From positions 1 to 64,000 of the forward strand of contig JAZQVR010000010.1 of NCBI GenBank assembly GCA_045631965.1: DNA of 64,000 bases, written 5' to 3'. Origin of the DNA: Acutalibacteraceae bacterium (GTDB taxonomy: Bacteria > Bacillota > Clostridia > Oscillospirales > Acutalibacteraceae). A program made the position numbers and the translations under genes. This document shows positions 2,595 to 29,939 of this stretch, in pieces (position 1 is the stretch's first letter; every line of letters begins with the position of its first letter). The notes beneath the pieces were generated by a model. It had not been told where the DNA came from and ran no database searches. It worked only from the letters and a program-made list of their open reading frames with translations.

Positions 2595-4361
2595 TTACTC
2601 AATAAGCACCGCAGCTTTTACTGATTTTGAAAAGGGAAGTTCGCGGTCGTTACTGCCCATAGTCAGACCACTCGGATTGCAGGTAATTGTGTCACCTATG
2701 ATGCTGCCGTGGATATCAAAATCACCCGAAGCGAGTGCAACATTGCCTTTGGGTGCATAAATTATTCCCCACAAATCAAAACCGCCCTGCTGAGAATAGA
2801 GTGTGATATCGCCTTTGCGTGAATAGATAGAAAGTGTTCCGCCGGCTTCATTGTATGTGTGTGTGCTGCCGCCGATTTTTATATCGTCTTCAGCTATCAT
2901 ACATCCGCTCAATGTAATGCCGCTTGAGCCTTGATTTGTTGAAAGCTTGCCGCCGCTGTATATAATACCTTTTATATTGTATTCTCCCTGACCTGAAAGT
3001 AGGAGCTCTTTTTTTCTGTTGTAAAGGTCGCCATTGAGAGTGAACGGACCTGCAATATCGGTTGCAGGTGATTCGTCGGTTGCGTTATTACCCCAGACAT
3101 AAATATCGCCGTTTACGGTAGTGCCGCCGCTTTGCAATTTAAGCGTATCATAAACATACATCTTTCCATTCACGCTCATAGATACACTGCCTTGCTTATC
3201 AAAAACTCCTCGGCAATAAACCGGGCCGTTAAAGGTTGCAGGACCGTTTAACGTCACATTACCGCCGACATAGGTTTCGCAGTCACACAGCAGACTGTAG
3301 CTTGAGCCGCGCGTAAGTTTACCGCCGGTATAAAAATAGTTGCCGTAAATATTTGTGTTGCCCTGCAGTGTAGTGTTACCGGCTACATATAAATTGCCGC
3401 CGACGCTGAAAGATTTGTCCCATGTAGTGGTCAGGTTTCCGCCGCAGTACATATTGCCCTTAACGTAAACGGGACACAGTGGATTGAAATCACCCTCGAT
3501 ATACAAATCGCCGTATATAATAAGCACATCGGAAGAATAGCTTGTCGAAAGAGTGCCCGCACAGTAAGTGTTACCGTTAATTGATATGGATGAATTTATT
3601 GTTGTGCCTGCAGCATAACGGTTGATATAAAAATTCAATTTTTCAACAGGAGCATAGTATTTTTGGAACATTGCTTCTGATGCAACCGGAGCAACAGCCA
3701 TAATTGTTGCATCAAAATCCGGCATTCCCTGAGATTTCACGTAATCTTTAAGTTGATTTACTGTTACGCTGTATTGGTTATAATCTGCATCCTGAGCTGA
3801 AAAAATCGTTCCGGTTATTGTGCTGCCGCCACCGTTGGCATATACGTTTCCGTTGCCGAAAATACTGCCGTCGATATTGTAGTGGCCGTTTAAGTTGAAC
3901 TGTGAATTATCGCCGTGGAACATAAGATACTCAAAATCTATCGCCATATTTTTGTTGACATAGCGTGCCGCAGCTTTGGCATTTATCTGAACGGAATCGA
4001 TATCGAAAAGGCTTGCAAAAATTGTTTCACACTTTCTTGAATCGGAAACGCGGACTATTTCGTCGCTCGGAAATTCAACAACTACGCTGTCAGTTGTAAA
4101 GCCGTTTTTTTCAACGTATTCGAGTGCAACCGCTTTTGCGGTCTGCTTATCCGGCATATAGCATACAGCAGCAAGTGCCGCAGAATCCATTGCGCTTTGA
4201 AGTTTGCTTTTCTGGTGGTATTTAAGTCCCATATCCGTGACAAGTGAAGCTATGGATAAAAAAGCTACAAGGCACAGTGCCGCAATAACCATTACAGCGC
4301 CGTTTTCTTCTTTCGCAAAAGATTTAATTCGGTTTCTCAGCATTGCAAGCACTCCCTTCAA
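2595..4361 (-). CDS. TadG-like large pilus-associated protein (TadE/TadG N-terminal domain plus long Gly/Asn-rich beta-helix-like repeat region)
   Basis: N-terminal TM segment with TadE/G-like motif (NGAVMVIAALCLVAFLSIASLVTDMGLKY). The C-terminal ~400 aa has repeated GGN-x-Y/V-x-GN units. It is the last gene of the tad operon. Confidence 0.55.
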   Translation of the reverse strand: MKGVLAMLRNRIKSFAKEENGAVMVIAALCLVAFLSIASLVTDMGLKYHQKSKLQSAMDSAALAAVCYMPDKQTAKAVALEYVEKNGFTTDSVVVEFPSDEIVRVSDSRKCETIFASLFDIDSVQINAKAAARYVNKNMAIDFEYLMFHGDNSQFNLNGHYNIDGSIFGNGNVYANGGGSTITGTIFSAQDADYNQYSVTVNQLKDYVKSQGMPDFDATIMAVAPVASEAMFQKYYAPVEKLNFYINRYAAGTTINSSISINGNTYCAGTLSTSYSSDVLIIYGDLYIEGDFNPLCPVYVKGNMYCGGNLTTTWDKSFSVGGNLYVAGNTTLQGNTNIYGNYFYTGGKLTRGSSYSLLCDCETYVGGNVTLNGPATFNGPVYCRGVFDKQGSVSMSVNGKMYVYDTLKLQSGGTTVNGDIYVWGNNATDESPATDIAGPFTLNGDLYNRKKELLLSGQGEYNIKGIIYSGGKLSTNQGSSGITLSGCMIAEDDIKIGGSTHTYNEAGGTLSIYSRKGDITLYSQQGGFDLWGIIYAPKGNVALASGDFDIHGSIIGDTITCNPSGLTMGSNDRELPFSKSVKAAVLIE

Positions 4362-4376
4362 AAGGTAATACCGTTT

Positions 4377-5369
4377 TTATTTTTCCTGTGCAGAATCGAT
4401 TGATTGTTTCAGCTGTTCTATCTGCTTGGTCAGTTCGCTGAGGGTAAGTTCTGCGCGGTCAACATAGTAGCCGTAAAGCTTAAGCTCTTTCTGTATTGCA
4501 AGTTTATCCTTGGCGTGCTCGGTTTCAAGCGAATTTATTTTTTCCGCGTGTTCAAATGCCTTGATTTTGTTTTCATCCTTCAGGCGGAGAATTTCTTCTT
4601 CGCTTTCGTTGACACGTTGACTCAATACACTGTTTTTGATTTCAAGCTCTGCAGATTGCTTTTTGACTTTTTCCGTTTCTGCAAGCAGTGTATTTATCTC
4701 AGCCGCTTTTCCCTCAAGTTCCGCATTCTTTTCCGCAAGTGATTTTTCTTTTGCGGTGAGTAATGCTTTGGCAGCCTCAAGCTGTGCAAAAACCGTCTTG
4801 TATTCTTCAATTATATTTTCGCTTTTCTGAACTTTGTTCAGAAGCTCTGCGTTTTCGCGTTTTAACGCTTCAACATTTGCTTTAAGATCTGAGTTTTCGG
4901 TTTCGAGGGAACTTATTTTCTCCGTATAATCCTTTTCCGTAGCATTGTTTTGATATAACTTCAAGGAATCATTTTCGTTTTCAAGCATTTCACAGCGTGC
5001 TTTGAGCTCGGCAATAATTTTTTCGTATTCTTCACTGTCTGCTGATGTACCGGGGATTTCCAAAGAATCAAGTTTTGCCTGACACTCTCTATATTTTTCG
5101 CTGTATAAGTTGCGTTCTCTGTTGGAAAGAATAAGTTCTTCCTTGATTGAAGAAAGCTTTGATTCATGCATACGGGACTCGGATTTATAGGTATGCGTAA
5201 GCTCGTTTATATAGTAAGCTACTTCATCGGGGTCGTAGCCGTAAAGCACTTTTTTGAAAAGTGTTTCAATGTCTTTGCTTTCTTTGCCGCGTGCGGGCGG
5301 ATTTATCTCTGCGTTCTTTGTTTCCTCAAGTACGGTACCTTTTACGGCTTCGTTTTTATTTTTCTTCAT
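4377..5369 (-). CDS. DivIVA-domain coiled-coil protein embedded in the Tad operon
   Basis: The N-terminal motif LFKKVLYGYDPDEVAYYINEL matches the DivIVA N-domain (F..GYD..EV..F). The remaining ~280 aa is heptad-rich, E/K/L coiled-coil sequence. Confidence 0.5.
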   Translation of the reverse strand: MKKNKNEAVKGTVLEETKNAEINPPARGKESKDIETLFKKVLYGYDPDEVAYYINELTHTYKSESRMHESKLSSIKEELILSNRERNLYSEKYRECQAKLDSLEIPGTSADSEEYEKIIAELKARCEMLENENDSLKLYQNNATEKDYTEKISSLETENSDLKANVEALKRENAELLNKVQKSENIIEEYKTVFAQLEAAKALLTAKEKSLAEKNAELEGKAAEINTLLAETEKVKKQSAELEIKNSVLSQRVNESEEEILRLKDENKIKAFEHAEKINSLETEHAKDKLAIQKELKLYGYYVDRAELTLSELTKQIEQLKQSIDSAQEK

Positions 5370-5731
5370 TTTTCATCCCCCACAGTTATTTTTAGTGAGT
5401 CACCTTCATGTATTCCGAGCTGTGCGGCGGCAAATGCTTTAACTTCAATTACGCTTCTTGCCTGCTTTACGGTTTTGCAGATTTTGCCCGGCTGTATGTT
5501 GCGTTCTATTTTTACAACTGTGTTTGCTTTATCAAGGTATATAACATCAATTGCAAATTTCATATTCAGCATATGTATCTGATTACACGGAGTAATAACC
5601 AACGCATAATCGTCCGCTATTGATTTGCGGAACATCAGCCCTCTGAAACGGGTAAAGAACGAATCGGCAAGCTCTGCATTTTTTGTAACTATTATATTGT
5701 TATTAATAATTATTATCTTTTTCATAAGCAT
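5366..5731 (-). CDS. DUF192 (COG1430) family protein
   Basis: Size (~120 aa) and motifs (RFRGLM...PCNQIHM...GD.L) fit DUF192. The start overlaps the upstream tadC stop. Confidence 0.5.
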   Translation of the reverse strand: MLMKKIIIINNNIIVTKNAELADSFFTRFRGLMFRKSIADDYALVITPCNQIHMLNMKFAIDVIYLDKANTVVKIERNIQPGKICKTVKQARSVIEVKAFAAAQLGIHEGDSLKITVGDEK

Positions 5732-6663
5732 TAAAATGTATCCAGTATATTAAGAACTGTCGGGCCCATAAGAATTATAAAAACTACGGGGAAGATAAAC
5801 AGCAGCATCGGCAACAGCATTTTGATAGAAGCCTTCATACCTTTTTCTTTTGCCTGCTGGCTTCTTTCTATACGCAGCTGTTCGGATTGTGCACGCATTA
5901 CGTTGTTGATCGGTATGCCGAGCTGTTCTGCCTGAACAAGTGCGGAAGCAAAGGTTTTGAGTTCGTCGAGGTTTGTTGCATCGCAAAGATTCTGCAAGGC
6001 TTCGCGTCTTGTTCTGCCCATCTGAATTTCGCGGTATACGATAAGAAGCTCATCAATAAACGGTCCCTTGAGCTTTTGCGAAACCTTTAAAAGTGCCGCA
6101 TCGAAGCCGAGACCTGCTTCAATACATACGCAAAGCATATCCATTGCATCGGGCAGCTGTCTTTTAATGCCTTTCTGATGGCTTGATACGCGTGAGCGAA
6201 GGTACATTGTAGGTCCCATAATACCTATCAGTACGCCTGACATAAGAATAAGCAGAGATATGAGCGCCTGAACTTTTACCGCAAGCATAATTACAAGCGT
6301 CAGAAAAACAGAACCGATCAAAAACGCATACTTTATAAACTGAAAATCGGAAGCTTCCATAAATATGCCGGCATAACGAAGCTGTTTGCGGATGGCTTCA
6401 AGTGCTTTCGTTTTACGTGCACTTTTCTTTTGAGGAAGGAGCTTGTTGAATTTAGCTAAAACGCTTTTTACACCCTTGCCGATAACTCTTTCGTAAAATG
6501 GAAGCTCCAGCTCTTTAAATATAGGCTGACCGACTGAATTGTTGATTCTGTCAATCCTGCTTCGTTTTTTATCTGATTTCCGACCTGCGGGAGAAGCCAG
6601 CAGGACTACCAGAATAAACGCAAGGAACGAATAAGCAATAACGAGAAATTCCAAAAAGCTCAC
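5731..6663 (-). CDS. tadC: Tad pilus inner-membrane platform protein TadC (T2SS-F domain)
   Basis: Polytopic membrane protein with a GspF-like cytoplasmic domain, immediately downstream of tadB in the operon. Confidence 0.7.
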   Translation of the reverse strand: MSFLEFLVIAYSFLAFILVVLLASPAGRKSDKKRSRIDRINNSVGQPIFKELELPFYERVIGKGVKSVLAKFNKLLPQKKSARKTKALEAIRKQLRYAGIFMEASDFQFIKYAFLIGSVFLTLVIMLAVKVQALISLLILMSGVLIGIMGPTMYLRSRVSSHQKGIKRQLPDAMDMLCVCIEAGLGFDAALLKVSQKLKGPFIDELLIVYREIQMGRTRREALQNLCDATNLDELKTFASALVQAEQLGIPINNVMRAQSEQLRIERSQQAKEKGMKASIKMLLPMLLFIFPVVFIILMGPTVLNILDTF

Positions 6664-6670
6664 CTCCGTA

Positions 6671-7663
6671 TCAATAGTCTATGGAAACTACCTTTCTTAT
6701 TGCGAAAAATCCGATTACTTCCATTACAACGGAAATTATAAGCATTATGTTGCCTATCTTTGTGGTAAAGAAGGATGACATATAATCCGGATTTACTACC
6801 ATCAGCACTGCCGCTATACCTATCGGCAGTGCACCTATAATCAGTCCTGACATTCGTCCCTGAGCGGTGATGGAGTTTATTTCGCCTTTGATTTTTATTC
6901 TTTCGCGGATTGTGTGGGAAATTGTTGAAAGCATTTCAGAAAGATTGCCGCCCGTTGTGCGCTGAATAAGCACTGCGGAAACTACAAGCATAAGGTCAGC
7001 GCTTTTAACACGGTCGCACATATTATTGAGTGCCTCTTCCATTGTTGCACCGTAACGGATTTCGTTACAGACTCTGCCGAATTCTATACCTATCGGAGGC
7101 GGCATATCATTGGCTACGTTTTCCATAACCTGGTTGAATGAAAAGCCCGAACGTAAACCGTTACACATCATTATCAGGGTATCGCCAAGCTGTGATTCAA
7201 AGTTTTTTCTGCGTTTATCCTTTTTTATTTTGATGAAAACAATCGGAATAAAAGCACCTATTGCCGCAAGCGTTGCCGAAGGCATAATACCCAGACGGAA
7301 CAATGCTGCAAGTCCTGCCGGAACAAAGGTAAGCACTATCCATATAAGAGTGAATTCTTCGGGCTTCATCATTATATCGGCCAGAATAAGCTCATTGAAA
7401 ATTGTATCCATAAGCTTTTTACGCTGTACCGAATGTTTGCCGTCGCTGTTAATGGCTCTTTTTAAAATTGAGGATTTGCGTTCTTTTTTCTTTTCCTGAA
7501 TCTGCAGGGTAAGCCCGCTTTTTTTGCTCGCTATTTTATCAACACGCTTTTCAACGGTGCGACGGCTTTGGGTTGCCGTGCCCATAATGCTGACCCAGAG
7601 AAAGAAGCTGAACAGAGCTATCGCAACGGCAAGAATAATTGTACTAATTTGTAAACCATTCAT
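6671..7663 (-). CDS. tadB: Tad pilus inner-membrane platform protein TadB (T2SS-F domain)
   Basis: Membrane protein with GspF-type motifs (NEIRYGATMEEAL). Its start overlaps the tadA stop. Confidence 0.7.
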   Translation of the reverse strand: MNGLQISTIILAVAIALFSFFLWVSIMGTATQSRRTVEKRVDKIASKKSGLTLQIQEKKKERKSSILKRAINSDGKHSVQRKKLMDTIFNELILADIMMKPEEFTLIWIVLTFVPAGLAALFRLGIMPSATLAAIGAFIPIVFIKIKKDKRRKNFESQLGDTLIMMCNGLRSGFSFNQVMENVANDMPPPIGIEFGRVCNEIRYGATMEEALNNMCDRVKSADLMLVVSAVLIQRTTGGNLSEMLSTISHTIRERIKIKGEINSITAQGRMSGLIIGALPIGIAAVLMVVNPDYMSSFFTTKIGNIMLIISVVMEVIGFFAIRKVVSIDY

Positions 7664-9005
7664 TATTGACCGTCACTCCGTTTCCTTTGATTTTTTCGAG
7701 GCATTTCGGTCTTACTCCGGTTGCATGGAATTTGCCCACGAATTTGCCCGAGGTATCAACCGTGCCGTCAGTTTCGTAAACAAAGATATCCTGCATGCTT
7801 ACTATATCGCCTTCCATACCTATTACTTCGGTTATGGAAGTTATTTTTCTTGTACCGTCGCGCAGACGGCTCTGCTGAACGATAAGGTCAATAGCTGAAG
7901 AAATCTGGTCTCTGATAGCTTTGAGCGGCAGTTCCATACCACTCATAAGAACCATTGTTTCAAGTCTTGCTACGGTATCACGCGGCGAGTTCGCATGGGT
8001 TGTGGTAAGCGAACCGTCGTGACCTGTGTTCATAGCCTGAAGCATATCCAGCGTTTCTTCCGAACGGACTTCACCGACGATTATTCTGTCGGGACGCATA
8101 CGAAGCGCGTTCTTTACAAGGTTACGGATTGTAACCGCACCCTTGCCTTCGAGGTTAGCAGGTCTTGCTTCAAGTGTGATAACATGCTCCTGCTTAAGCT
8201 GGACTTCCGCAGCGTCTTCAATTGTGACAATACGTTCATCCTCGGGAATGTAAGATGAAAGAACATTCAGAAGAGTTGTTTTTCCCGAACCGGTACCGCC
8301 CGCAACAACTATATTCAGTTTACCCTTTACACAAGCTTCAAGGAAATGGAGCATATCGGGGGTGAGTGAACCGAACTTTAAAAGCTGCTGTGCAGTTATC
8401 GGCTTTTTGCCGAACTTTCTTATTGTAAGCACAGGGCCTATAAGAGATAGCGGAGGAATGATAGCGTTCACACGGGAGCCGTCGGCAAGTCTGGCATCAA
8501 CCATAGGGCTTGCTTCGTCAACATGTCTGCCGACATTTGAAACTATACGGTTTATAATATTCATCAGGTGGTCTTCGTCCCTGAACTTGAGGTCGGTAAG
8601 CTTAAGCTTACCCTTATCTTCGATATATATCTTTTCCGGGCCGTTTACCATAATTTCGCTGATTGACGGATCCTGAACAAGTACCTCAATCGGGCCGTAG
8701 CCCATAATATCGTTAAAAAGATCTGTCGCAACCTTTTCTCTGTCAATACGCGGAATCAGAAATTCATCTTCATTGACTTTATCATCAACGATTTTGTACA
8801 TTACATCGCGGTCTGTTACGGTCTGACCGCTTTTGTTCATTTCGTCGATAATAGCTATATGAATTCTGCGTTTTGTTTCAAGATACGGGTCTTCAACCGT
8901 TTCTTCGGTTGCGGCTTTTTCTTTTGTTTTTTCAGCTTGTTCAGCTGTATCGCCTTTTTGTAACGGCAGTTTTTTCTGGCCGTCTATTCTGTCAAGAAGT
9001 CCCAT
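7644..9005 (-). CDS. cpaF: Tad pilus secretion ATPase TadA/CpaF (VirB11/GspE family)
   Basis: Walker [10 protein letters not shown], Asp box, Walker B and His box in the order typical of CpaF/TadA. About 450 aa. Confidence 0.9.
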
Positions 9006-9019
9006 ATCAAAACCTCACA

Positions 9020-10246
9020 TTACTTCTGCTTTTTCGTTAACGAAAAGCCTTTTTTCTTCGGTTGAGTGTTGTCTACGGGAACTATGCCCGTATGTACTTC
9101 GATTATTTTTTTTGCAAGATCGGATATACCCTTGGCAAGTGCCGACTTGGGTTGTGCAACCGTTACTGCCATACCCTTGTTCACGCTTGTAAGTGCTGCA
9201 GGGTAATCAGCGGAAATCTGTGCAAACAGATCCATTCCGAACATTTCGGTAAAATCTTCAGGTTTAATCAGGCTTTTTTCAATTCTGTTCAGCACAAACC
9301 TGATTTTATCGCGCTGATGAAGCTGGTCGAGTATCGTATAGCACACCTTTGCGTTGTTGAGTGAAAGAATTTCGTTGTTGTAAACCAAGAAAATTTCTTC
9401 ACAGTTTTCACAGGCTGTAATTACCGCATCATTGAAAGCTGAGGGCAAATCAATAATAATGTATTCGTAATACGGACGCATGATATCGATTATCCGCTCA
9501 ATATGCGTGGGTGTTACAAACTCGGCATATTCCGAACTCTTCGGCGCACAAAGCACGCTCATACCGCTTGAATGCTCAACGGCAAAACCGTTTATGTTTT
9601 CAATCGTGATACCGCCCCTGTCCTGAACAAGGTCAACAATAGAATTCTTTGTGTCCAGGTCAAGTGCCATTGATACATCGCCGAACTGCAGATCCAGATC
9701 AAGCAGCATTACTCTTTTGCCTGCCTTTGCAAGGCTTGCCGCAACACCGATTGCAAGCGTTGTTTTGCCCGTACCGCCTTTGCCGCCGAAAAATCCGAGT
9801 GCTTTGCAGCGCACCTTTTTGCCTTCGTTTGTGTCTAAAATACGTTGCTGTTCAAGTGAGTAAACCGTTTTGATATTTTCCGAAAAAGCTTCGCTGCTTA
9901 TTCCGTCAATCGGCAGAACCTTGCGTATACCATACTGTGCAGCTTTGTTTACAAGGTCGACGGTTATGTCGTCGTTGACAAGAATTACTATCAGCCCTTT
10001 GGCAACAGCAAGCAAATCCTGAACGAAACCAAACAGTGTATCCGGCACTTCGCCCCTGACTGCACAAAGAACGATTTCGGGATATTTGTTTATTATTTTT
10101 GTCTTACCTTCGGCCGAAAAGCCCGAATAACCGCTGATTGCAAACGCTTCATCGGCTACAAGATTTTTTGTCTCAATTCTTAAATCAAGGTCGTCCGACA
10201 AAATAAGTAAATTCATTTTTTCCATAGCCGTTTCATCTCCGATCAA
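9020..10246 (-). CDS. tadZ: TadZ/CpaE: N-terminal pseudo-receiver domain plus ParA/MinD-like ATPase
   Basis: Deviant Walker A GGKGGTGKTT in the C-terminal half and a receiver-like N-terminal domain. Position between cpaB and tadA. Confidence 0.75.
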   Translation of the reverse strand: MIGDETAMEKMNLLILSDDLDLRIETKNLVADEAFAISGYSGFSAEGKTKIINKYPEIVLCAVRGEVPDTLFGFVQDLLAVAKGLIVILVNDDITVDLVNKAAQYGIRKVLPIDGISSEAFSENIKTVYSLEQQRILDTNEGKKVRCKALGFFGGKGGTGKTTLAIGVAASLAKAGKRVMLLDLDLQFGDVSMALDLDTKNSIVDLVQDRGGITIENINGFAVEHSSGMSVLCAPKSSEYAEFVTPTHIERIIDIMRPYYEYIIIDLPSAFNDAVITACENCEEIFLVYNNEILSLNNAKVCYTILDQLHQRDKIRFVLNRIEKSLIKPEDFTEMFGMDLFAQISADYPAALTSVNKGMAVTVAQPKSALAKGISDLAKKIIEVHTGIVPVDNTQPKKKGFSLTKKQK

Positions 10247-10249
10247 TTA

Positions 10250-10981
10250 TTATTCGGCTGAGGGTGGTGCTGTTGTGGATTCGCCCATACCTTGGTTTGT
10301 TGCAGGCTCTTTTTTATCAGCAATGCTACCTTCAAGATTGTTGCTTTCTGCAAACGATACAAGTACGATTCTGTAATCGTTGATCGACATAAGCTTCGGA
10401 ATTTGTTCCTTGGTAAGCGCAAGCGTAAGAACCGAATAACTTGTTATTTCAGTGCCGTTATCCTGCTGTATATTCGCGGTATAATCGCTGATTTTTATTA
10501 CCGGAATATTTTCAAGTGCCGGCACGGCACTTCCCGAAAGCTTATCGTAAATGTTTATGCAGTCGTATTCTTTTATGAAATATGCTACACCGTCTTCGAT
10601 TTCTACGGTTATTGTGTACGCATACATTCCGTTTTCAAGCTGGTATGAAAGCCTGCCTTTTGCTGTTTTTTGTCCTACGGGAATCAGCTTACCTGCCATA
10701 AGCTGTTCGCCCTTAAGGATTTTCACACCTGCCATATAGCCGACTATATCTTCGGCTTTGCTTACCGTTCCGTAGGAAACGCCCGAAGCAGGTATTTTCA
10801 CTTCCCGGAACATATCAGCTGTGAGTATTGTGTTTTCATCTATATCCTGAAGCGCAATCAGAACAACTGCTTCATCAACACCTGTTACGACTTTGCTTGT
10901 TTTCAGCTCATTTGCAAAAAAGTATGTTGCAAGGCCTGCCGCAAGAGCGATTACAACCGCTATAAGATAAATTTTTTTCAT
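10250..10981 (-). CDS. cpaB: Flp pilus assembly protein CpaB/RcpC (SAF domain)
   Basis: N-terminal membrane anchor, 243 aa, operon position between tadE and tadZ. Confidence 0.65.
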   Translation of the reverse strand: MKKIYLIAVVIALAAGLATYFFANELKTSKVVTGVDEAVVLIALQDIDENTILTADMFREVKIPASGVSYGTVSKAEDIVGYMAGVKILKGEQLMAGKLIPVGQKTAKGRLSYQLENGMYAYTITVEIEDGVAYFIKEYDCINIYDKLSGSAVPALENIPVIKISDYTANIQQDNGTEITSYSVLTLALTKEQIPKLMSINDYRIVLVSFAESNNLEGSIADKKEPATNQGMGESTTAPPSAE

Positions 10982-11024
10982 AACTGACAGTCACCTTTCC
11001 GTGGTGTATCCGGATTTGTTTCCG

Positions 11025-11450
11025 CTACACATATGATTCTACTTTCATTGTTACTGTTGAGGTCAACGTTTTTTCTTTACCGAGTATGGTGCTCAATACC
11101 GGTGTGAAGAATGAAATATCAGCCTGCATACTGACTTCTACATCTCCTGATGTCGGATCTGAAGGCGATGTATATGTAATCTTGATATCCACACCGTCAT
11201 TTGCAAATACATTTGTTGAAAGATTTTCAATGTGATTTATTATTGCCTGAGTATCGGCATTCTCTTCGGTGTGAACTACGGCATACCTTGCACCTTCGCG
11301 GCAGGCATTGTTGAGCGAAAGCTGATTATAAAACAGCCAGCCGAAATCAATGATACCGCACAGGATCAGAAGAAAAATCGGAAGAATCAGCGCAAATTCA
11401 ACCATTGACTGGCCGTCTTCGCGTTTGAACTTCCTTAACCTTTTCTTCAT
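11025..11450 (-). CDS. tadE: TadE-like pseudopilin
   Basis: N-terminus SMVEFALILPIFLLILCGIIDFGWLFY matches the TadE-like domain. Confidence 0.7.
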   Translation of the reverse strand: MKKRLRKFKREDGQSMVEFALILPIFLLILCGIIDFGWLFYNQLSLNNACREGARYAVVHTEENADTQAIINHIENLSTNVFANDGVDIKITYTSPSDPTSGDVEVSMQADISFFTPVLSTILGKEKTLTSTVTMKVESYV

Positions 11451-11473
11451 TTTCCGTCACCTCCACCTTGGTT

Positions 11474-11512
11474 TTTAGCATTAAAGGGTAAGCTCGCTCA
11501 GCGAGCGAACTT
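11474..11512 (-). terminator. Intra-operon hairpin (attenuator/partial terminator) between flp pilin and tadE
   Basis: Extended palindrome gggtaagctcgctcagcgagcgaacttaccc immediately downstream of the flp stop on the transcribed strand. Such placement is typical of structures that uncouple pilin from machinery expression. Confidence 0.4.
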
Positions 11513-11566
11513 ACCCTTGACGAGTTACTTAGTATTTTTAAGTAAGGAATTAATAAGCGTGATTTC

Positions 11567-11761
11567 TTATGTACCTGAAGCTGTTGTTGCGGCTTCCTGG
11601 CCGATATCATCAATGCTGTCATTTACCTGGTCAAACAGATCACGTACCTTCGGACCGAGTGCTACAAGAGCAACGATAACAACGATTGCGATAAGACCTA
11701 TAATGAGACCGTACTCTACCATACCCTGACCTTCTTCGTCTTTAAACCATTTTCTTAACAT
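11567..11761 (-). CDS. flp: Flp/Fap-family pilin (copy 1)
   Basis: 64 aa. Flp signature G/QGMVEYGLIIGLIAIVVIV (G-XXXX-EY prepilin peptidase site followed by a hydrophobic helix). Confidence 0.85.
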   Translation of the reverse strand: MLRKWFKDEEGQGMVEYGLIIGLIAIVVIVALVALGPKVRDLFDQVNDSIDDIGQEAATTASGT

Positions 11762-11891
11762 AACTTTTTCCTCCTTAAATGTAATTGTGTTTTTTACTTT
11801 GACGGTTGTGTTAATCTGTTTACTTCTCAGTTTCGGTTTAACGTTCTTACTTTAAAGGCATCATAAGGTTTTGCTGTACGGATTTCTACTG

Positions 11892-12086
11892 TCAGGTACC
11901 TGAAGCTGTTGTTGCGGCTTCCTGACTGATATCATCAATGCTGTCATTGACCTGGTCGAACATATCGCGGATCTTCGGACCGAGTGCTACAAGAGCAACG
12001 ATAACAACGATTGCGATAAGTCCTATGATGAGACCATACTCAACCATACCCTGACCTTCTTCGTCCTTGAACCATTTTCTTAACAT
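11892..12086 (-). CDS. flp: Flp/Fap-family pilin (copy 2, tandem duplicate)
   Basis: 64 aa, 61/64 identical to copy 1 (KIRDM vs KVRDL; S vs G). Confidence 0.85.
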   Translation of the reverse strand: MLRKWFKDEEGQGMVEYGLIIGLIAIVVIVALVALGPKIRDMFDQVNDSIDDISQEAATTASGT

Positions 12087-12151
12087 TGTTCTTGCCTCCT
12101 TTATAATTTTTGTTTTTTTATTTTACCCTTTTCGCGGGTCAATTCCTGTTT

Positions 12152-12835
12152 TTAAAAGAGTGATGAGAAAACCTGCTGTGAAAGTTCACCGAACAGCGGG
12201 AAGAGAACCGTTACCACTGTACCGAGTGAAAGATAGGGACCCATGGGAACCGAAGTTTTAAGCGAACCCTTTTTGGTTACTACCAGATATACCAAAAAGA
12301 TCATCAAGCCGACCGCCATAATCAGTGCTGCCTGAAGGTATCCGAAAGCACCAAGACAGTAGCCGATTGCCGCGCTGTATTTTACATCGCCTGTTCCTAT
12401 CGGTATGCCTATAAGCATAGGCAGCTGATAGAGAATGAAGCCTGCTGCAAGACCTATAAGTGAAGGAATCAGTACTTCCTTTACCGGGGATCCTGTTGCG
12501 ATTGCGTAGACGATTGCGACGGTTCGGATTATCAGAAGAGCGAGTACAGAAGAATTAGGTATCTTTTTGATATCCAGATCTACAACGCCGATTGAAATTG
12601 CTACCGAAATGTAAGCAATCGCTTCGAGCCTTGCAGCTGTTTCGCTGTACCTCATAAAAGTTACCGCAAACAGAACTCCCGAGATCAACACCCAGGCAAC
12701 TATCAGAGCGATGTTCTTAACCGCTTCGACTTTCGAGGTTTCCTGTGTACGGTGTTTAATCTGGAAAATTGCTATCCGGTTAAAGGCCAATGCCGCGAGT
12801 GTACCGAGCGCTCCGCCGTAAATTGTTTCAACCAT
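12152..12835 (-). CDS. Prepilin peptidase (A24 family, TadV/CpaA-like)
   Basis: 227-aa polytopic membrane protein with conserved Asp-containing segments (VVDLDIKKIP ... GTGDVKY). First gene of the tad operon. Confidence 0.75.
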   Translation of the reverse strand: MVETIYGGALGTLAALAFNRIAIFQIKHRTQETSKVEAVKNIALIVAWVLISGVLFAVTFMRYSETAARLEAIAYISVAISIGVVDLDIKKIPNSSVLALLIIRTVAIVYAIATGSPVKEVLIPSLIGLAAGFILYQLPMLIGIPIGTGDVKYSAAIGYCLGAFGYLQAALIMAVGLMIFLVYLVVTKKGSLKTSVPMGPYLSLGTVVTVLFPLFGELSQQVFSSLF

Positions 12836-13325: not shown

Positions 13326-14564
13326 ATGAACAAATTAACCGTTCAGCAAGCCGCAGAAAAGTGGAATATATCCGTAAGGAGAGTGCAGGATTACTGCAGA
13401 CTCGGCAAAATACCCGGTGCAGAACGTCTGGGCTCAAACTGGCTTATACCGGCAGATGCAATCCGTCCCGTTGACGGCAGAAGCAAAACCGCAAAGCTTG
13501 ATGCACAACGCGATATACCTATGCCGCGTAAAAGTCCTTTCCTTGATATGACAGACCTTTATTCAGAACCCGGTACGGCAAATAAATGTATATTTGCTCT
13601 TTCAAGTAACCCTGAAGCTCAGGCGCTTTTTTCTGCGGAAATAGCATACAGGCGCGGCGAAATAGACAGTGTATACAGATATGTACAATACTTTTTTGAT
13701 AAACATTCCGGCTTGTATTCCGTTATCGGCAGCGGTATGCTGCTTTCGCTTTGTGCAATGTGGACGGGTGACATCAATATGTGGCGACGAGCAAGAAAGC
13801 ATATTTGCGAAGCACCCGTAAAGAACAGTACCGAGCGTGATATCCTTGCTCTTTCACTTGCTGCAACCGACAGCGCAATACGTGCTACGGAAGATTTTCC
13901 CGAATGGTTCAAAAGAGGCTGCTTTGACAGCCTTCCCGTTGATGCTCGCCCTGCAGCTATGGTATATTATCTTAAATACCTTATTGTTTACGCACAGGAG
14001 CTTGCAACAGGCGAGCTGAAACTGCAGAATATACGCGGTCTCGGTCTGATGAGGTGTGTGCCGTATATTGCCGAGCCGATGATAACTGCAGCTCATAGCG
14101 ACGGTTATCTGATTCCTGAAATATATCTGCGCCTTATGTGCGCAATCGCCTGCCAGCAGTGCGGCGATACGGGCAGGGCAATATATCATCTTGATATAGC
14201 AATAGAATACTGCCTTGCAGATGATTTGTTCGGTCTGCTTGCAGAGCAACGCAGACAGCTTGGCAAAATTCTTGATGAAAGACTTGCGCTTGTTGACCCG
14301 TATGCCGTAAAGCGTGTAAAGGATCTGCACAAACGTGTGCATACCGGTTGGACAATTATCCACAACGCAATACTTGAAAGAACAGTTAACGTTGCCCTTA
14401 CTCTGCGCGAACGTGAAATAGCCCGCCTTGCAGTATTCGGACTTACCGACAGACAGATAGCAAATCAGCTTGATATGCCTGAATCACAGGTAAAAAGTAT
14501 GCTCAAATCCGCAAAAGAAAAGACCGGAGTTGATAAACGCTCCGATCTGGCAATGTATATTTGA
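13326..14564 (+). CDS. LuxR-family transcriptional regulator: N-terminal MerR/excisionase-like HTH, central helical domain, C-terminal LuxR-type HTH
   Basis: The C-terminus LTLREREIARLAVFGLTDRQIANQLDMPESQVKSMLKSAKEKTG is a GerE/LuxR HTH. The N-terminus LTVQQAAEKWNISVRRVQDYCRLGKIPGAER is a second HTH. Divergent to the tad operon. Confidence 0.7.
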   Translation: MNKLTVQQAAEKWNISVRRVQDYCRLGKIPGAERLGSNWLIPADAIRPVDGRSKTAKLDAQRDIPMPRKSPFLDMTDLYSEPGTANKCIFALSSNPEAQALFSAEIAYRRGEIDSVYRYVQYFFDKHSGLYSVIGSGMLLSLCAMWTGDINMWRRARKHICEAPVKNSTERDILALSLAATDSAIRATEDFPEWFKRGCFDSLPVDARPAAMVYYLKYLIVYAQELATGELKLQNIRGLGLMRCVPYIAEPMITAAHSDGYLIPEIYLRLMCAIACQQCGDTGRAIYHLDIAIEYCLADDLFGLLAEQRRQLGKILDERLALVDPYAVKRVKDLHKRVHTGWTIIHNAILERTVNVALTLREREIARLAVFGLTDRQIANQLDMPESQVKSMLKSAKEKTGVDKRSDLAMYI

Positions 14565-14658: not shown

Positions 14659-14695
14659 AGCACCTTTGCTTGCATAACCTGCAAGCAAAGGTGCT
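14659..14695. terminator. Bidirectional rho-independent terminator
   Basis: Perfect 15-bp stem agcacctttgcttgca-taacc-tgcaagcaaaggtgct with an A-run 5' and a T-run 3', between the convergent stops at 14564 (+) and 14707 (-). Confidence 0.6.
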
Positions 14696-14706
14696 GAATT
14701 TTTATG

Positions 14707-15351
14707 TTATATTGTGTTCTTTGAGAAGATATTTCTGCGATCAATCTCAGCCGCAATTGACTTGATATAATCGGCAGCATCAAACTGTGCGTTATCGATA
14801 TTATCATCGAGAATGATTAACATCTGGCGAATCTCGGCATCCTTTTCCGTAACAACGCAGTCATTGGAAAAGTGAAGCTTTTCTTCGAGAGCGGTTAATT
14901 CTTTCTTGAACTTCTGAGCACCGGGCTTTACCATTACGCATTTAACCAGCTTGCGCATTTCAAGCATGTTGGCCTTTGCACTCTGGACAACATCATCCTC
15001 CTGCTTTCTCTTATTGGAAAAATTCCAAAGGAAAGAGCCGACGGTAAGAAGAGCAATAAATGCTACGATATAGAATGCAAAATATGTGAGGTATCCCTCG
15101 GGGAAATTCACAATATATACTAACGAAAGAATTACAGCTATCGGAACCATTACAGCAGCGCTGATAGCAGCCGTTAACTTTCTGGGGTCACCCTTGGACA
15201 TATAGAATAAGCAAGCTGCAACACCTTCAGCAAGTACAACGCCGAAAAGAGTGATAAGGCACATTGCTTCTAAGAAAGAATCTCCTAAAATGGCAAGGTA
15301 TAAAACAATGGTAATTACAATAGAAGCTATACCACCAATAATGCTATACAT
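14707..15351 (-). CDS. Membrane protein (4 TM helices plus cytoplasmic helical tail); possible YdjH-like partner of the SPFH protein
   Basis: Hydrophobic N-terminal half and charged C-terminal half. Starts 16 bp downstream of the SPFH gene stop. Confidence 0.45.
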   Translation of the reverse strand: MYSIIGGIASIVITIVLYLAILGDSFLEAMCLITLFGVVLAEGVAACLFYMSKGDPRKLTAAISAAVMVPIAVILSLVYIVNFPEGYLTYFAFYIVAFIALLTVGSFLWNFSNKRKQEDDVVQSAKANMLEMRKLVKCVMVKPGAQKFKKELTALEEKLHFSNDCVVTEKDAEIRQMLIILDDNIDNAQFDAADYIKSIAAEIDRRNIFSKNTI

Positions 15352-15366
15352 TTTTGTTACCTCCTG

Positions 15367-16638
15367 TTAATCCGCTTTTGATCCGCAATTACTGCAGAAC
15401 TTGGTTCCGTCTGCAAGTGCAGCTCCGCAACCGGGACATTTCTTCACCATAGACTTGCCGCAACCGGGGCAGAATTTTGCATTCGGCTCTAATGTGCTGC
15501 CGCAATCCGGGCAAATCACCTGACCGCAGCCGGGGCACTTGTTTGAACCCTCCGGAACATCTGCACCGCAGTTTTTGCAAGCATTAATCTTTTTGCCGCA
15601 ATCAGGACAGAATTTTGCACCTGCTGCATATGATGTACCGCAAGCTGAACACTTCAGTTCAGACGAAGCTTTTTGTGTATTAGCACCGCATTCGGGGCAG
15701 AACTTCAAGTTTTCAGCAATTTTAGCACGGCAAGAAGGACATTCTTTTGTGTTACCCTGGGTTGATAATACAGAGCCCATATTGCCTGCAGCATTTCCGA
15801 CTGCACCGCCGATGCCGAAACCGATGCCTGCACCGATACCTGCGCCCATAACGCCACCTGCAGCACCCTGATTTCCCGCAGCAGTATTCAATGTATCGAA
15901 AGTTCTTTCCTGCTGATAGTTGAAGCCGAGGATATCCATCTCAGCTTTCTTGGCAAGAGCTTCTTTAAGCTTCTTTACGGCAGGATCGTTTTCGGGAACA
16001 CTGATATCATTGATATAGAAAGAGTGTACATTAATTCCGAATTCGGAAAACTCGTACTGAAGCTGTTCGCTGAGAGCAAATGATATCTCTTCCAGATGTG
16101 AATTGATTTCCAGTATTGAAATTTTGGAATCAACAAGACATGATGAAAGTCTATCTTTGACTCGTGTAACATATAATCCTCTGAAGTAGTCAGAAAGAGT
16201 CTGCTTATTGAAGAAATTCATCGTGCCGACGAGTTTTGTAAGGAATCGTCTGGAATCTTCAATCTGTATACCGAACTGACCGAAAGCTCTCAACGGTACA
16301 AAAACACCGTACTTGGGATCCTGAACCTGTATAGGTGTTGTTGTACCCCATTTAATATCCAGCGCAAAAGCTTTGTTGATAAACCAAACTTCAGCAGAGA
16401 AAGGAGATTTACCGCCAAAGGGAATATTGACAAACTTCTGCAAAACCGGAATATTGTCAGTCGTGAGCTTATAATGACCGGGACCGAAAACGTCACAGAT
16501 CTGACCGTTTTTTACCAGAACAGCCTCTTGTGATTCGTTAACAATAAGCTGTGTCCAGGTCGACAACTCTGTGTTGGGATATCGCCAGGCAAAAATGCTG
16601 GCATCCGAATTAAATTTTAATACATCAACAATCGCCAT
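15367..16638 (-). CDS. SPFH/band-7 protein of the YdjI type fused to a Gly-rich linker and a C-terminal array of ~5 Zn-ribbons
   Basis: The core AEVWFINKAFALDIKWGTTTPIQVQD...FGINVHSFYINDISVP aligns with B. subtilis YdjI (AEVLFVNTKEFTVRWGTKQAINIP...). The C-terminus holds repeated CPxCG...CPxCG pairs (CPSCRAK..CPECG, CSACGT..CPDCG, CKNCGA..CPGCG, CPDCGS..CPGCG, CPGCGA..CSNCG). Start is taken at ATG 16638, which has the RBS GAGAGGTG; the longer ORF extension lacks one. Confidence 0.75.
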   Translation of the reverse strand: MAIVDVLKFNSDASIFAWRYPNTELSTWTQLIVNESQEAVLVKNGQICDVFGPGHYKLTTDNIPVLQKFVNIPFGGKSPFSAEVWFINKAFALDIKWGTTTPIQVQDPKYGVFVPLRAFGQFGIQIEDSRRFLTKLVGTMNFFNKQTLSDYFRGLYVTRVKDRLSSCLVDSKISILEINSHLEEISFALSEQLQYEFSEFGINVHSFYINDISVPENDPAVKKLKEALAKKAEMDILGFNYQQERTFDTLNTAAGNQGAAGGVMGAGIGAGIGFGIGGAVGNAAGNMGSVLSTQGNTKECPSCRAKIAENLKFCPECGANTQKASSELKCSACGTSYAAGAKFCPDCGKKINACKNCGADVPEGSNKCPGCGQVICPDCGSTLEPNAKFCPGCGKSMVKKCPGCGAALADGTKFCSNCGSKAD

Positions 16639-16731
16639 TAATATACACCTCTCATAAATATGCGCATTGTTTTTTAGACAAAGATGATTATACAACTTAC
16701 TAAAAAAAAAGTCAATATTTGTAAAAAACAC

Positions 16732-16760
16732 TTGAAAAAAGTTTTTTTACGATATATAAT
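16732..16760 (+). promoter_or_regulatory. Putative sigma-A promoter for the TM2-domain gene
   Basis: TTGAAA (16732-16737), 17-nt spacer, consensus TATAAT (16755-16760), about 40 bp upstream of the ATG at 16802. Confidence 0.45.
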
Positions 16761-16801
16761 ATGTGCGAAACCAAAATTTTATACAAAAGGGGTATTAAAT
16801 T

Positions 16802-17200
16802 ATGAGCAGCTATTGTCCTCAGTGCGGTGCACCTGTTGCAGCTAACGCTGTAAAATGTGATTACTGTAACGCACCTATCGCAAACAACGCACAGCCTGTA
16901 AATCCTGTTGTAAATCCTGTAAATCCTGCACAGCCTCAGGTTGTTGTTGTACAGAACGGCGGCTACAACGAAAGAGCAAACTGGCCTATCAAGAATAAGC
17001 TTGTTGCAGGCTTGTTGGCTATCTTACTGGGCGGTATCGGTGTCCACAAGTTCTATCTTGGCGAAAGCGGTAAAGGCGTTTTATATCTCCTTCTCTGCTG
17101 GACCGGTATTCCCGCTATCATTGGCCTTATCGAGGGTATCACAATCCTCACTTCCACTGATGAGAATTTCCAGATCAAGTACAGGTGCCGCATAGGCTAA
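16802..17200 (+). CDS. N-terminal Zn-ribbon plus TM2-domain membrane protein
   Basis: CPQCGAP...CDYCNAP ribbon and a Pro/Val/Asn-rich linker. TM2 signature LLAILLGGIGVHKFYLG...GIPAIIGLIEGI. Confidence 0.7.
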   Translation: MSSYCPQCGAPVAANAVKCDYCNAPIANNAQPVNPVVNPVNPAQPQVVVVQNGGYNERANWPIKNKLVAGLLAILLGGIGVHKFYLGESGKGVLYLLLCWTGIPAIIGLIEGITILTSTDENFQIKYRCRIG

Positions 17201-28275: not shown

Positions 28276-28893
28276 TTACCTGGCTGTTTTTTTGTTTTTA
28301 TTAGCGGAATAAGTATTGAGCTTTGCACCGCAGTTGCAACAATACTGGCTGTTAGGGCTGTTGTTTGTATTGCAGACACTGCATATCCGTGCAGTCTTAA
28401 CATACGGATTGGGGCGACTCGGAGCTTTAGGTCTCTTGTCGTATGCAGGTTCCTTCGGCTCGGTATGCTGCCGCTCATTGAAACTGCCGGATATGTTAAT
28501 AAATTGTTGCTTATCAAAACGGCCGGATTTTGCACTGCTCAGAATTTTTTCAACAGCAGACAGCACATTATCATCCCACTGCTGATTTTTTATCAAAGCA
28601 AGCGTTTGCTCTACGGATGGCTCCGGTGGAGGATTCCACAGTATTTTAAACAGTGAAACCGCAGGTGTACGAGACTTAATTACCTGCAGAGTAGGATACA
28701 GCTCGTAATTACGGCTGTTATCAAAACCGCATTTTTCGCAAAGAGGTGTTCTGTTCTGCGTTCCGCAAACAGTGCAGATATGTGAGCATTTACCTTTTGC
28801 GTTTACTGAAGCTGCTTTGTCGGCAGACTTATTTGGGGTACTATTGGATAAACTGTTACCAACAGTAAAATAATCGTTGTTTTTGCTGTTCAT
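28276..28893 (-). CDS. Double Zn-ribbon protein (205 aa)
   Basis: Two CxxC...CxxCG ribbons (CTVCGTQNRTPLCEKCG; CSVCNTNNSPNSQYCCNCG) separated by a ~110-aa domain. Confidence 0.5.
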   Translation of the reverse strand: MNSKNNDYFTVGNSLSNSTPNKSADKAASVNAKGKCSHICTVCGTQNRTPLCEKCGFDNSRNYELYPTLQVIKSRTPAVSLFKILWNPPPEPSVEQTLALIKNQQWDDNVLSAVEKILSSAKSGRFDKQQFINISGSFNERQHTEPKEPAYDKRPKAPSRPNPYVKTARICSVCNTNNSPNSQYCCNCGAKLNTYSANKNKKTAR

Positions 28894-28958
28894 TGTATAT
28901 ACGCCTCAATCGAGATGAATTTAATTTTTGCAGCTGCAGTTTCGTGCAGCCAAACAAA

Positions 28959-29939
28959 TCAAAGGTCACCGGGACGGAAGAAAGGATTTTCTCTTGTCGT
29001 GGATTCGTTGATAACAGGCGGCTTGTATGTAGTCTCTGCAACAGGTGGTGCTACATAATCAACCTTCGGAATTTCAGGCTCTGTGCCGCGTAATTTATGA
29101 AATACCTCAACGGCTGTAGGTCTTTTTTGCGGGTCACCGTCTACCATAGATTCAATCAGCGTTGCTATATCGCCGGGCAGTCTGCTCGATATAATCAGCT
29201 TTTCGCCCTTTGCAACGGCTTCGCCGGAGTAAGAATTTTCTATAGTGTTGTATCTCGGAAGCTCGCCCGTAAAATACTGATGAAAAAGAACACCCAATGC
29301 AAAAATATCCATTTTGCAGGTAAGCTCCACGCTTTCGCCCCAGATGTTTTTACAAGCCTCGGGTGAGAAATAATGGAAATCGCCTATGATTGCTTCGCCG
29401 GGTGCAGGCGGATTTGATTCCAAAAAGCTGCTGTCAAAATCGATAACCTTTGCCGTCACACGACCCGATGAGCTTTTGGTGAAAAGAATATTATCGGGTT
29501 TCAAATCGGCATGTATCAGCTTCATTTTGTGAAGACCTGCAATAGCGTGAGTAATAATCGCACACAGCCTTTTGATTTCACTAAGCGGAAGCTTTGCAAT
29601 ATCGGCAACATCCATATTAATCGCGTTAATCTTCTGCATAGCGATATAGTATTTGGATTCAATGCGGAAAAACTCTTCTATGCGAACGGCATTACCGTCT
29701 GAAGAAAGGTTTACCGCCTGATAGATTTTCTTTTTATCCTGCTCAAACAGCTGACATTCTCTGATCTTCTTTTTTAAACGTTCAGGACTGGAAACCGTAT
29801 CATTAAAAGGATATTTACGCTCAACAAACTGTTTGATGAAATATTCTTTTCCGCCCTTATTAGCAAAGCCCCAGATAGAGTAGCCGGCATTTTGGTTTGT
29901 AAAAGAACTTGTTATTTCATATTTACCCAGTTGTTCCAT
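28959..29939 (-). CDS. Ser/Thr protein kinase (Hanks-type), third member of the TerY-P-like triad
   Basis: Catalytic loop IHADLKPDNILF, activation segment VIDFDSS (DFD in place of DFG), lysine-containing FIKQF strand. The start ATG overlaps the PP2C stop (TAATG). Confidence 0.7.
   Translation of the reverse strand: MEQLGKYEITSSFTNQNAGYSIWGFANKGGKEYFIKQFVERKYPFNDTVSSPERLKKKIRECQLFEQDKKKIYQAVNLSSDGNAVRIEEFFRIESKYYIAMQKINAINMDVADIAKLPLSEIKRLCAIITHAIAGLHKMKLIHADLKPDNILFTKSSSGRVTAKVIDFDSSFLESNPPAPGEAIIGDFHYFSPEACKNIWGESVELTCKMDIFALGVLFHQYFTGELPRYNTIENSYSGEAVAKGEKLIISSRLPGDIATLIESMVDGDPQKRPTAVEVFHKLRGTEPEIPKVDYVAPPVAETTYKPPVINESTTRENPFFRPGDL

Follow-up and report, generated by a model that had tools for sequence, protein, structure and literature searches.

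The window considered here is the whole stretch of 64,000 nucleotides that was analysed, positions 1 to 64,000 of contig JAZQVR010000010.1 from an Acutalibacteraceae bacterium (GenBank assembly GCA_045631965.1), and within it we examined a cassette of three genes at positions 14707-17200. The central gene (15367-16638, minus strand, stop codon included) encodes a soluble, 423-residue SPFH protein of the Band_7_1 family with five C-terminal zinc ribbons. It is followed on the same strand by the gene of a 214-residue partner protein (14707-15351) with four transmembrane (TM) helices and a helical tail of about 100 residues, and it is preceded by a divergently transcribed gene (16802-17200, plus strand) for a 132-residue protein that joins an N-terminal zinc ribbon to a TM2 domain (ZnR-TM2). 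Within the YdjI/SamI family the cassette is a variant that is uncharacterised and has membrane partners of another sort, and it does not amount to a system of a new kind.

The SPFH gene occupies an open reading frame (ORF) at 15367-16731 on the minus strand, in which the ATG at 16638 is a plausible start, with GAGAGGTG just before it and an N-terminus that reads MAIVDVLKF. Residues 18-234 (Pfam envelope, 15937-16587, minus strand) match the Band_7_1 profile PF13421 with an E-value of 3.6e-54 and 184 bits (gathering cut-off 24), covering profile positions 2-209 of 211. By hydropathy, no hydrophobic or TM segment is present anywhere in the 423 residues. Behind the SPFH domain lies a Gly/Ala-rich, hydrophobic linker of low complexity (residues 253-296, 15751-15882, minus strand) in which 16 of the 44 residues are Gly and 9 are Ala; a GxGxG-rich stretch following the SPFH domain was found in all relatives inspected and in YdjI, and a Gly-rich hydrophobic linker is a hallmark of the Band_7_1 family. 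More than 5000 matches were returned by a protein search with the SPFH protein, and the top 120 clusters of homologs, with 67-100% identity and lengths of 419-446 residues, have an architecture identical to that of the window protein, their SPFH domains showing an average column identity of 0.88. The few named members among these clusters are called 'SPFH domain-containing protein' and come from metagenome-assembled genomes (MAGs) of Clostridia. When the PDB was searched by sequence with the SPFH protein, a single match at chance level was obtained.

The C-terminal array of five Cys4 zinc ribbons spans residues 300-418 (15385-15741, minus strand). A motif count finds ten CxxC pairs over this region that make up exactly five CxxC-x10-CxxC ribbons with 20 cysteines, and Pfam places Zn_Ribbon_1 on five stretches and DZR on four, with Zn_ribbon_3 also matching. 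Each of the 20 cysteines is conserved to at least 99% in the 120 homolog clusters, from which the ribbons appear to be under purifying selection, and five ribbons are present in 118 of these 120 nearest clusters. We also followed the tail into more distant relatives by two routes, a full HMMER search, with the SPFH domain alone as query against 1.84 billion representatives, which gave 3806 clusters, and a metagenome scan with the SPFH-domain alignment, which gave 80 loci that are 38-65% identical and whose ORFs were analysed in six frames. Among the best 150 of the 3806 clusters (clustered at 50% identity), no ribbon was counted in 64, a class that includes some fragments, one in 13, two in 35, three in 26, four in eight and five in four; the 80 loci likewise span zero to five ribbons. 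Ribbon-free relatives of full length carry a SHOCT or GYF_2 tail behind an equivalent Gly-rich linker, and the complete range of Band_7_1 tails seen in the best 150 clusters and in loci L012-L091 comprises zero to five ribbons, SHOCT, at times doubled, or GYF_2 with Pro-rich flanks. The SHOCT tails agree with a published survey, in which PF13421 is the commonest partner of SHOCT (PMC3581485). Because the ribbon count varies between zero and five and SHOCT and GYF_2 occur as alternatives, the tail appears to behave like a swappable adaptor module, and the five ribbons of the window protein would mark the top of a common, variable range and not an expansion peculiar to this locus. SHOCT- and GYF_2-tailed proteins thus share the SPFH domain and the Gly-rich linker with the window protein, and many of their loci also have a gene for a protein of about four TM helices downstream, with a ZnR-TM2 gene adjoining in L064, L073 and L079; they differ from it in their C-terminal adaptor domain, the window locus standing at the upper end of ribbon number.

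The partner gene begins with an ATG 15 nucleotides past the stop codon of the SPFH gene, with CAGGAGGTAACAAAAATG between the two and an AGGAGG ribosome-binding site 8 nucleotides ahead of the ATG, an arrangement by which the two genes appear to be closely coupled in translation. Its product has hydrophobic segments at residues 4-22, 31-49, 63-81 and 91-109, followed by a hydrophilic tail of about 100 residues, and in an AlphaFold2 model built from an alignment of 24 sequences (predicted local distance difference test score, pLDDT, 76) it is helical throughout, the fourth TM helix running on into a long helix after which come three shorter ones. The tail should face the cytoplasm, since the number of TM helices is even and basic residues follow the fourth. 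The partner has no match in Pfam even at E ≤ 10, TPM and NfeD included, and none in NCBIfam; PADLOC models gave none for it or for the other two cassette proteins. In a Foldseek comparison with the PDB nothing fell below an E-value of 0.16, and what was retrieved was noise from GPCRs, vinculin and designed bundles. We therefore rejected the possibility that the partner is NfeD or a member of another known family, as Pfam, NCBIfam and PADLOC were all empty. A hidden Markov model of the partner does find about 12 proteins encoded downstream of distant SPFH genes, with E-values from 1e-24 to 1e-6.

The divergent gene encodes an N-terminal zinc ribbon, matched by Zn_Ribbon_1 with an E-value of 1.4e-5, a linker rich in Pro, Gln and Val, and a TM2 domain (PF05154) of two TM helices, matched with an E-value of 8e-19 and 68 bits (cut-off 27.9). 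The intergenic region of 163 bp that separates it from the SPFH gene contains two promoter-like sites back to back, TTGACT-17-TATAAT at 16687-16715 on the minus strand, ahead of the SPFH and partner genes, and TTGAAA-17-TATAAT at 16732-16760 on the plus strand, ahead of the ZnR-TM2 gene, each with 11 of 12 consensus matches. Overall, the promoter scan did not exceed chance (10 sites against 7.3 ± 3.2 in shuffled sequences), while these two outscore all others in the region and are correctly positioned; TTGACA and TATAAT boxes are also found in the related locus L007, and partly in L004 and L006. An earlier note on this DNA, made from its letters alone, had described a divergent TM2 gene with a ribbon of the same type behind a consensus sigma-A promoter, TTGAAA-17-TATAAT, and both the gene and the promoter-like sequence are present as described. 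At the other end of the cassette, a bidirectional hairpin resembling an intrinsic terminator (14659-14695), with a 16-bp stem and T runs on both sides, closes the SPFH-partner pair as well as a convergent LuxR-type gene. The SPFH and partner genes thus appear to form a bicistronic operon that extends from promoter to terminator.

The cassette is not restricted to this genome. The divergent TM2 gene, the SPFH gene with five ribbons and the gene of a 218-219-residue partner were found intact in four otherwise unrelated neighbourhoods at 67-83% identity, so that the ZnR-TM2 gene lies divergently upstream of the SPFH gene in four other contexts too, and the cassette type is widely conserved and abundant in gut and rumen Clostridia. 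Genes for Hsp70-like, AAA and PspA_IM30 proteins are all absent from the vicinity in these four contexts. Farther out, in most of the 80 metagenomic loci that are long enough, the next gene downstream encodes a protein of about four TM helices (113-147 or 220-263 residues), none of which belongs to a Pfam family, and TM2 genes adjoin distant Band_7_1 genes with three ribbons or a GYF_2 tail (L063, L064, L073 and L079). In a keyword search of the literature we met neither a description of Band_7_1, four-TM and TM2 genes as neighbours nor a function for bacterial TM2 proteins.

The studied relative of the SPFH protein is YdjI (SamI) of Bacillus, which consists of a soluble SPFH domain, a stretch of low complexity and a zinc finger at its C-terminus (PMC8581546; bioRxiv 10.64898/2026.02.06.704340), recruits PspA, an ESCRT-III homolog, and requires the membrane proteins YdjG and YdjH for its localisation at the membrane (PMC8581546). 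YdjH is a membrane protein with a TPM-phosphatase domain and a low-complexity tail, and in YdjG a pair of zinc ribbons is combined with an NTF2-like domain and a TM segment (PMC11237479). By means of a primer sequence printed in PMC8581546 we obtained a Bacillus tequilensis locus (L009) that begins 421 bp upstream of ydjI; it yielded YdjI and the C-terminal end of YdjH only, and our comparison with Bacillus is limited to these. The B. tequilensis YdjI ortholog (L009:422-1393) has 323 residues, begins MSFFRNQL, matches PF13421 with 144.5 bits (E-value 4.6e-42) and ends in a single CPNCG...CPNCG ribbon. The window protein aligns with it in BLASTP over about 350 residues at 23% identity (E-value 2e-19). 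The earlier note's assignment of the SPFH core to the YdjI type thus passes a formal alignment, with PF13421 common to both proteins, and its proposal that the ribbon has been multiplied to about five behind the Gly-rich linker is supported by exactly five ribbons in the window protein and one in YdjI. The kinship is at the level of the family and not one of orthology. By contrast, the description of the membrane partner as YdjH-like did not hold: the partner lacks a TPM domain, is modelled as an all-helical four-TM protein, and in BLASTP does not match the last 101 residues of the YdjH ortholog. Its identification as a YdjH or TPM protein is thereby ruled out, on the grounds of this comparison, the absence of a Pfam match at E ≤ 10, the all-helical model and the fold search.

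Set against the Bacillus system as a whole, the likenesses are in protein layout and the differences in content. The window protein shares with YdjI the PF13421 domain, the lack of a membrane anchor of its own, the Gly-rich low-complexity linker and the CPxCG-type C-terminal ribbon, while differing from it through its 23% identity and its five ribbons in place of one. As in the pspA-ydjGHI (samGHI) operon, two membrane proteins are encoded alongside, one of them with an N-terminal ribbon; unlike in that operon, pspA is found neither in the window operon, nor in the window, nor in the related loci, a four-TM helical protein and ZnR-TM2 take the place of a TPM-type YdjH and of YdjG, and the ribbon-bearing membrane protein is divergently transcribed, outside the operon. 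With neither a nearby PspA, nor a TPM partner, nor a partner of the YdjG type, the window cassette does not appear to belong with pspA-ydjGHI. ZnR-TM2 resembles YdjG only in being a membrane protein with a cytoplasmic ribbon, which makes the two alike in layout without homology, and its single ribbon and TM2 domain in 132 residues set it apart from YdjG as described in the literature. The same TM2 domain (PF05154) is found in the eukaryotic TM2D proteins (almondex/TM2D3; PMC8714088), from which the bacterial protein differs by its 132 residues and its cytoplasmic zinc ribbon. The flotillin and stomatin-NfeD operons (FloA/FloT, YqiK, QmcA-YbbJ) also belong to the SPFH superfamily and combine an SPFH protein with a small membrane protein in one operon; in those operons, however, the SPFH protein is anchored by a TM or hairpin segment at its N-terminus, its C-terminus is of the flotillin or coiled-coil type, and NfeD is the partner, whereas the window SPFH protein is anchorless and its partner has no NfeD match in Pfam at E ≤ 10.

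We consider it somewhat better than even, with a probability of roughly 0.55, that the three genes make up a self-contained membrane-scaffold module of the YdjI/SamI (Band_7_1) branch, with partners other than those of Bacillus, a four-TM anchor and a multivalent ribbon tail, a reading that draws largely on analogy. It is favoured by the family and layout shared with YdjI, the operon structure, the integrity of the cassette in four neighbourhoods, the four-TM proteins encoded downstream in most of the distant loci, the recurrence of TM2 genes there and the conserved ribbon cysteines. The SPFH protein of the window most likely forms a membrane-tethered scaffold. The four-TM partner would be the membrane anchor of an oligomeric SPFH assembly lying beneath the membrane, engaged through the partner's cytoplasmic helical tail, a role that is likely because the SPFH protein is anchorless and YdjI needs two membrane proteins. 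ZnR-TM2 may provide a second membrane contact, as the counterpart of the ribbon-bearing YdjG. The five ribbons could then serve as a multivalent, membrane-proximal protein-binding tail, multiplied further by the SPFH oligomer, that would recruit or cluster clients or the membrane partner with the ribbon; the output would probably be local membrane organisation or an envelope-stress response, and not an enzymatic activity.

Several points weigh against the scaffold module in this form. The anchoring role of the partner is proposed from gene order and from the analogy with a protein of 23% identity, and the partner itself has no detectable relative of known function. Its homology with the 145-residue group of four-TM proteins finds moderate support in a profile-profile comparison (62%, E-value 8e-5), and homology with the 114-residue four-TM proteins of distant loci finds none, at an hhalign probability of 5%. 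In the clade at 55-65% identity no TM2 gene occurs within 6 kb of the SPFH gene, and given this TM2-less clade the TM2 protein is a non-obligate partner. TM2 genes also adjoin ribbon-free SPFH proteins, and therefore a pairing of ribbon with ribbon is not required. A further count speaks in favour of the module: of the 1260 ORFs no more than 1.5 kb from the SPFH gene, 26 encode small membrane proteins that combine an N-terminal ribbon with one or more TM helices, against 2 of the 1962 farther away (odds ratio 21, Fisher p 3e-9). This enrichment is only indicative, the counts being of raw six-frame ORFs from related, non-independent loci.

The most obvious alternative arises from the neighbourhood, since an adjacent operon might supply the PspA that the cassette itself lacks. 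The interval at 17.4-28.2 kb is a separate conserved cassette with genes for a DUF1294 protein, an Hsp70-like protein, a 610-residue coiled coil and a 165-residue ribbon protein, followed by proteins of about 540, 430 and 243 residues, an AAA ATPase and a protein of about 340 residues; in other genomes a DUF87 ATPase is added. The earlier note had seen candidates for PspA/ESCRT-III-like proteins at 23.7-28.2 kb and, from these, a rearranged and expanded Psp-like module. On this model they and the AAA ATPase would work with the SPFH cassette. In the window no more than about 8 kb separates the two gene sets, and Bacillus YdjI does recruit an ESCRT-III homolog (PMC8581546), but we consider the proposal very unlikely. 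No protein of the operon has a Pfam match to PspA_IM30, Snf7 or MIT even at E ≤ 10, PF04012 is found neither among the neighbours scanned nor in the Pfam lists of the four other cassette contexts, and searches with Escherichia coli PspA (phmmer and jackhmmer) come up empty over the ORFs of the window and of about 85 related loci. One candidate, a 244-residue protein, is modelled (pLDDT 72) as a helical bundle with a non-specific four-helix fold that is compatible with ESCRT-III without being diagnostic of it; its family aligns with E. coli PspA at an hhalign probability of 1%, its PDB sequence search is empty and Foldseek finds nothing below an E-value of 0.7, so that its reading as PspA/ESCRT-III has no support from sequence, and it may at most be a lead about a different system. 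A 445-residue protein gives a weak and irrelevant match to a tail sheath and nothing else, and among solved structures the AAA ATPase comes closest to the D2 domains of VAT/Cdc48. The candidates are thus not confirmed, having no Pfam signature, no match to PspA and a non-specific fold. Nor is the neighbourhood conserved in either direction: the Hsp70/AAA cassette occurs in two contexts elsewhere, neither with an SPFH gene alongside. As each cassette occurs without the other, the SPFH cassette in four contexts and the Hsp70/AAA cassette in two, their adjacency in the window is incidental, and a functional tie between them was rejected on synteny. With neither conserved synteny nor PspA or Snf7 signatures in the window, the Psp-like module of the earlier note is not borne out.

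PspA could instead act in trans. If the cassette were a functional equivalent of YdjGHI, it might recruit a canonical PspA/IM30 encoded elsewhere in the genome; family and layout are those of YdjI, Band-7 genes lie beside pspA in several phyla, and abbreviated operons may use a PspA encoded elsewhere (PMC11237479; bioRxiv 10.1101/2021.02.15.431232). We regard this as doubtful, given that searches with E. coli PspA found no PspA homolog in the 64-kb window and about 85 related loci, that the 23% identity with YdjI speaks for membership in one family and against orthology, and that neither membrane partner is a homolog of YdjG or YdjH. Two further readings concern the ribbon tail, which may not be an adaptor for proteins at all. 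That it binds nucleic acid, as a DNA or RNA tether to the membrane or in regulation, is quite unlikely to our mind: many proteins use zinc ribbons of this general class to bind nucleic acids (PMC3581485) and the ribbon of YdjG is annotated as TF_Zn_Ribbon, but the ribbons of the window protein are short (about 22 residues) and not notably basic, their position is taken in close relatives by SHOCT or GYF_2, which are regarded as oligomerisation or peptide-binding modules, and ribbons of this type are N-terminal in many of the small membrane proteins encoded alongside, which a sub-membrane protein network fits better. The other reading, extremely unlikely in our estimate, takes the tail with its 20 cysteines as a redox or zinc sensor, in which oxidation or loss of zinc would switch scaffold assembly. 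In other proteins, Cys4 zinc sites are known to work as redox switches, all 20 ribbon cysteines are conserved to at least 99%, and the homologs come from 'Clostridia bacterium' MAGs, which we take to be anaerobes; yet the freedom in ribbon number, from zero to five, and the substitution by tails that lack these cysteines favour an adaptor over a dedicated sensor.

If the three genes do form a self-contained scaffold module, the consequences reach beyond this locus. SPFH proteins are universal organisers of membranes whose bacterial clients are mostly unknown, and YdjI/SamI, the only studied member of Band_7_1 without an anchor, has been interpreted wholly through its link to PspA. That the scaffold is kept with other membrane partners, and that PspA is not found nearby, suggests that the core job of the family is independent of PspA. 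We would go further only tentatively, and with less than even confidence, in proposing that a Band_7_1 SPFH protein, a protein of about four TM helices and a membrane protein with an N-terminal ribbon, often TM2, constitute a widespread and undescribed scaffold or stress system, distinct from Psp, in which a swappable adaptor selects the clients. Were this true, it would give bacterial TM2-domain proteins their first functional context, and the PspA link of Bacillus would be one lineage-specific use of a more general scaffold. For annotation, a single module replaces one 'SPFH domain-containing protein' and two 'hypothetical proteins', and partners for testing are supplied in the four-TM protein without a family and the TM2 protein; the practical value is modest.

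Some observations made along the way concern the surroundings of the cassette here and elsewhere. Tandem genes, at least two in a row, for membrane proteins with N-terminal ribbons stand beside the SPFH gene in L064 (5622-9332), L067 (3570-4359), L055 (1552-2608) and L019 (556-1789), which hints at paralogous families of ribbon-anchored partners. A fourth co-directional gene follows the partner in L001 (12046-13227), with equivalents in L002 and L003, and encodes a 393-residue protein with an N-terminal Zn_Ribbon_1 and one TM helix; it is seen in that one lineage and absent from the window. Two genes from the cassette in L006 (540-3173) lies the gene of an 877-residue TIR_2-WD40-RCC1 protein, likely of a defence or NAD-depleting effector type and probably unrelated to the cassette. 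A defence-system reading was also tried and rejected: the SPFH cassette has no PADLOC match, and in the Hsp70/AAA operon the matches to JetC/LmuB (610-residue protein) and IetA/TRIP13 (AAA ATPase) are generic ones of coiled coils and AAA domains. Convergent to that operon, the minus strand at 28276-30910 encodes a 205-residue protein with ribbons at both ends, a 326-residue Ser/Thr kinase and a 323-residue, weakly PP2C-like phosphatase; as a DZR protein also follows the Hsp70/AAA cassette in L011, these genes may belong with it. On the other side of the SPFH operon, and convergent with it, the plus strand at 13326-14564 encodes a 412-residue regulator with an N-terminal, excisionase-like HTH_17 domain and a C-terminal LuxR/GerE helix-turn-helix, the LuxR-type gene that shares the hairpin at 14659-14695; it does not stand beside the cassette in other genomes. 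Farther upstream, a co-directional run on the minus strand at 2595-12835 ends in a 64-residue ORF that by eye resembles a Flp-type pilin (…QGMVEYGLIIGLIAIV…) and in a type IV prepilin peptidase (Peptidase_A24, E-value 2e-7), which suggests a Tad/Flp pilus cluster upstream of the SPFH cassette.

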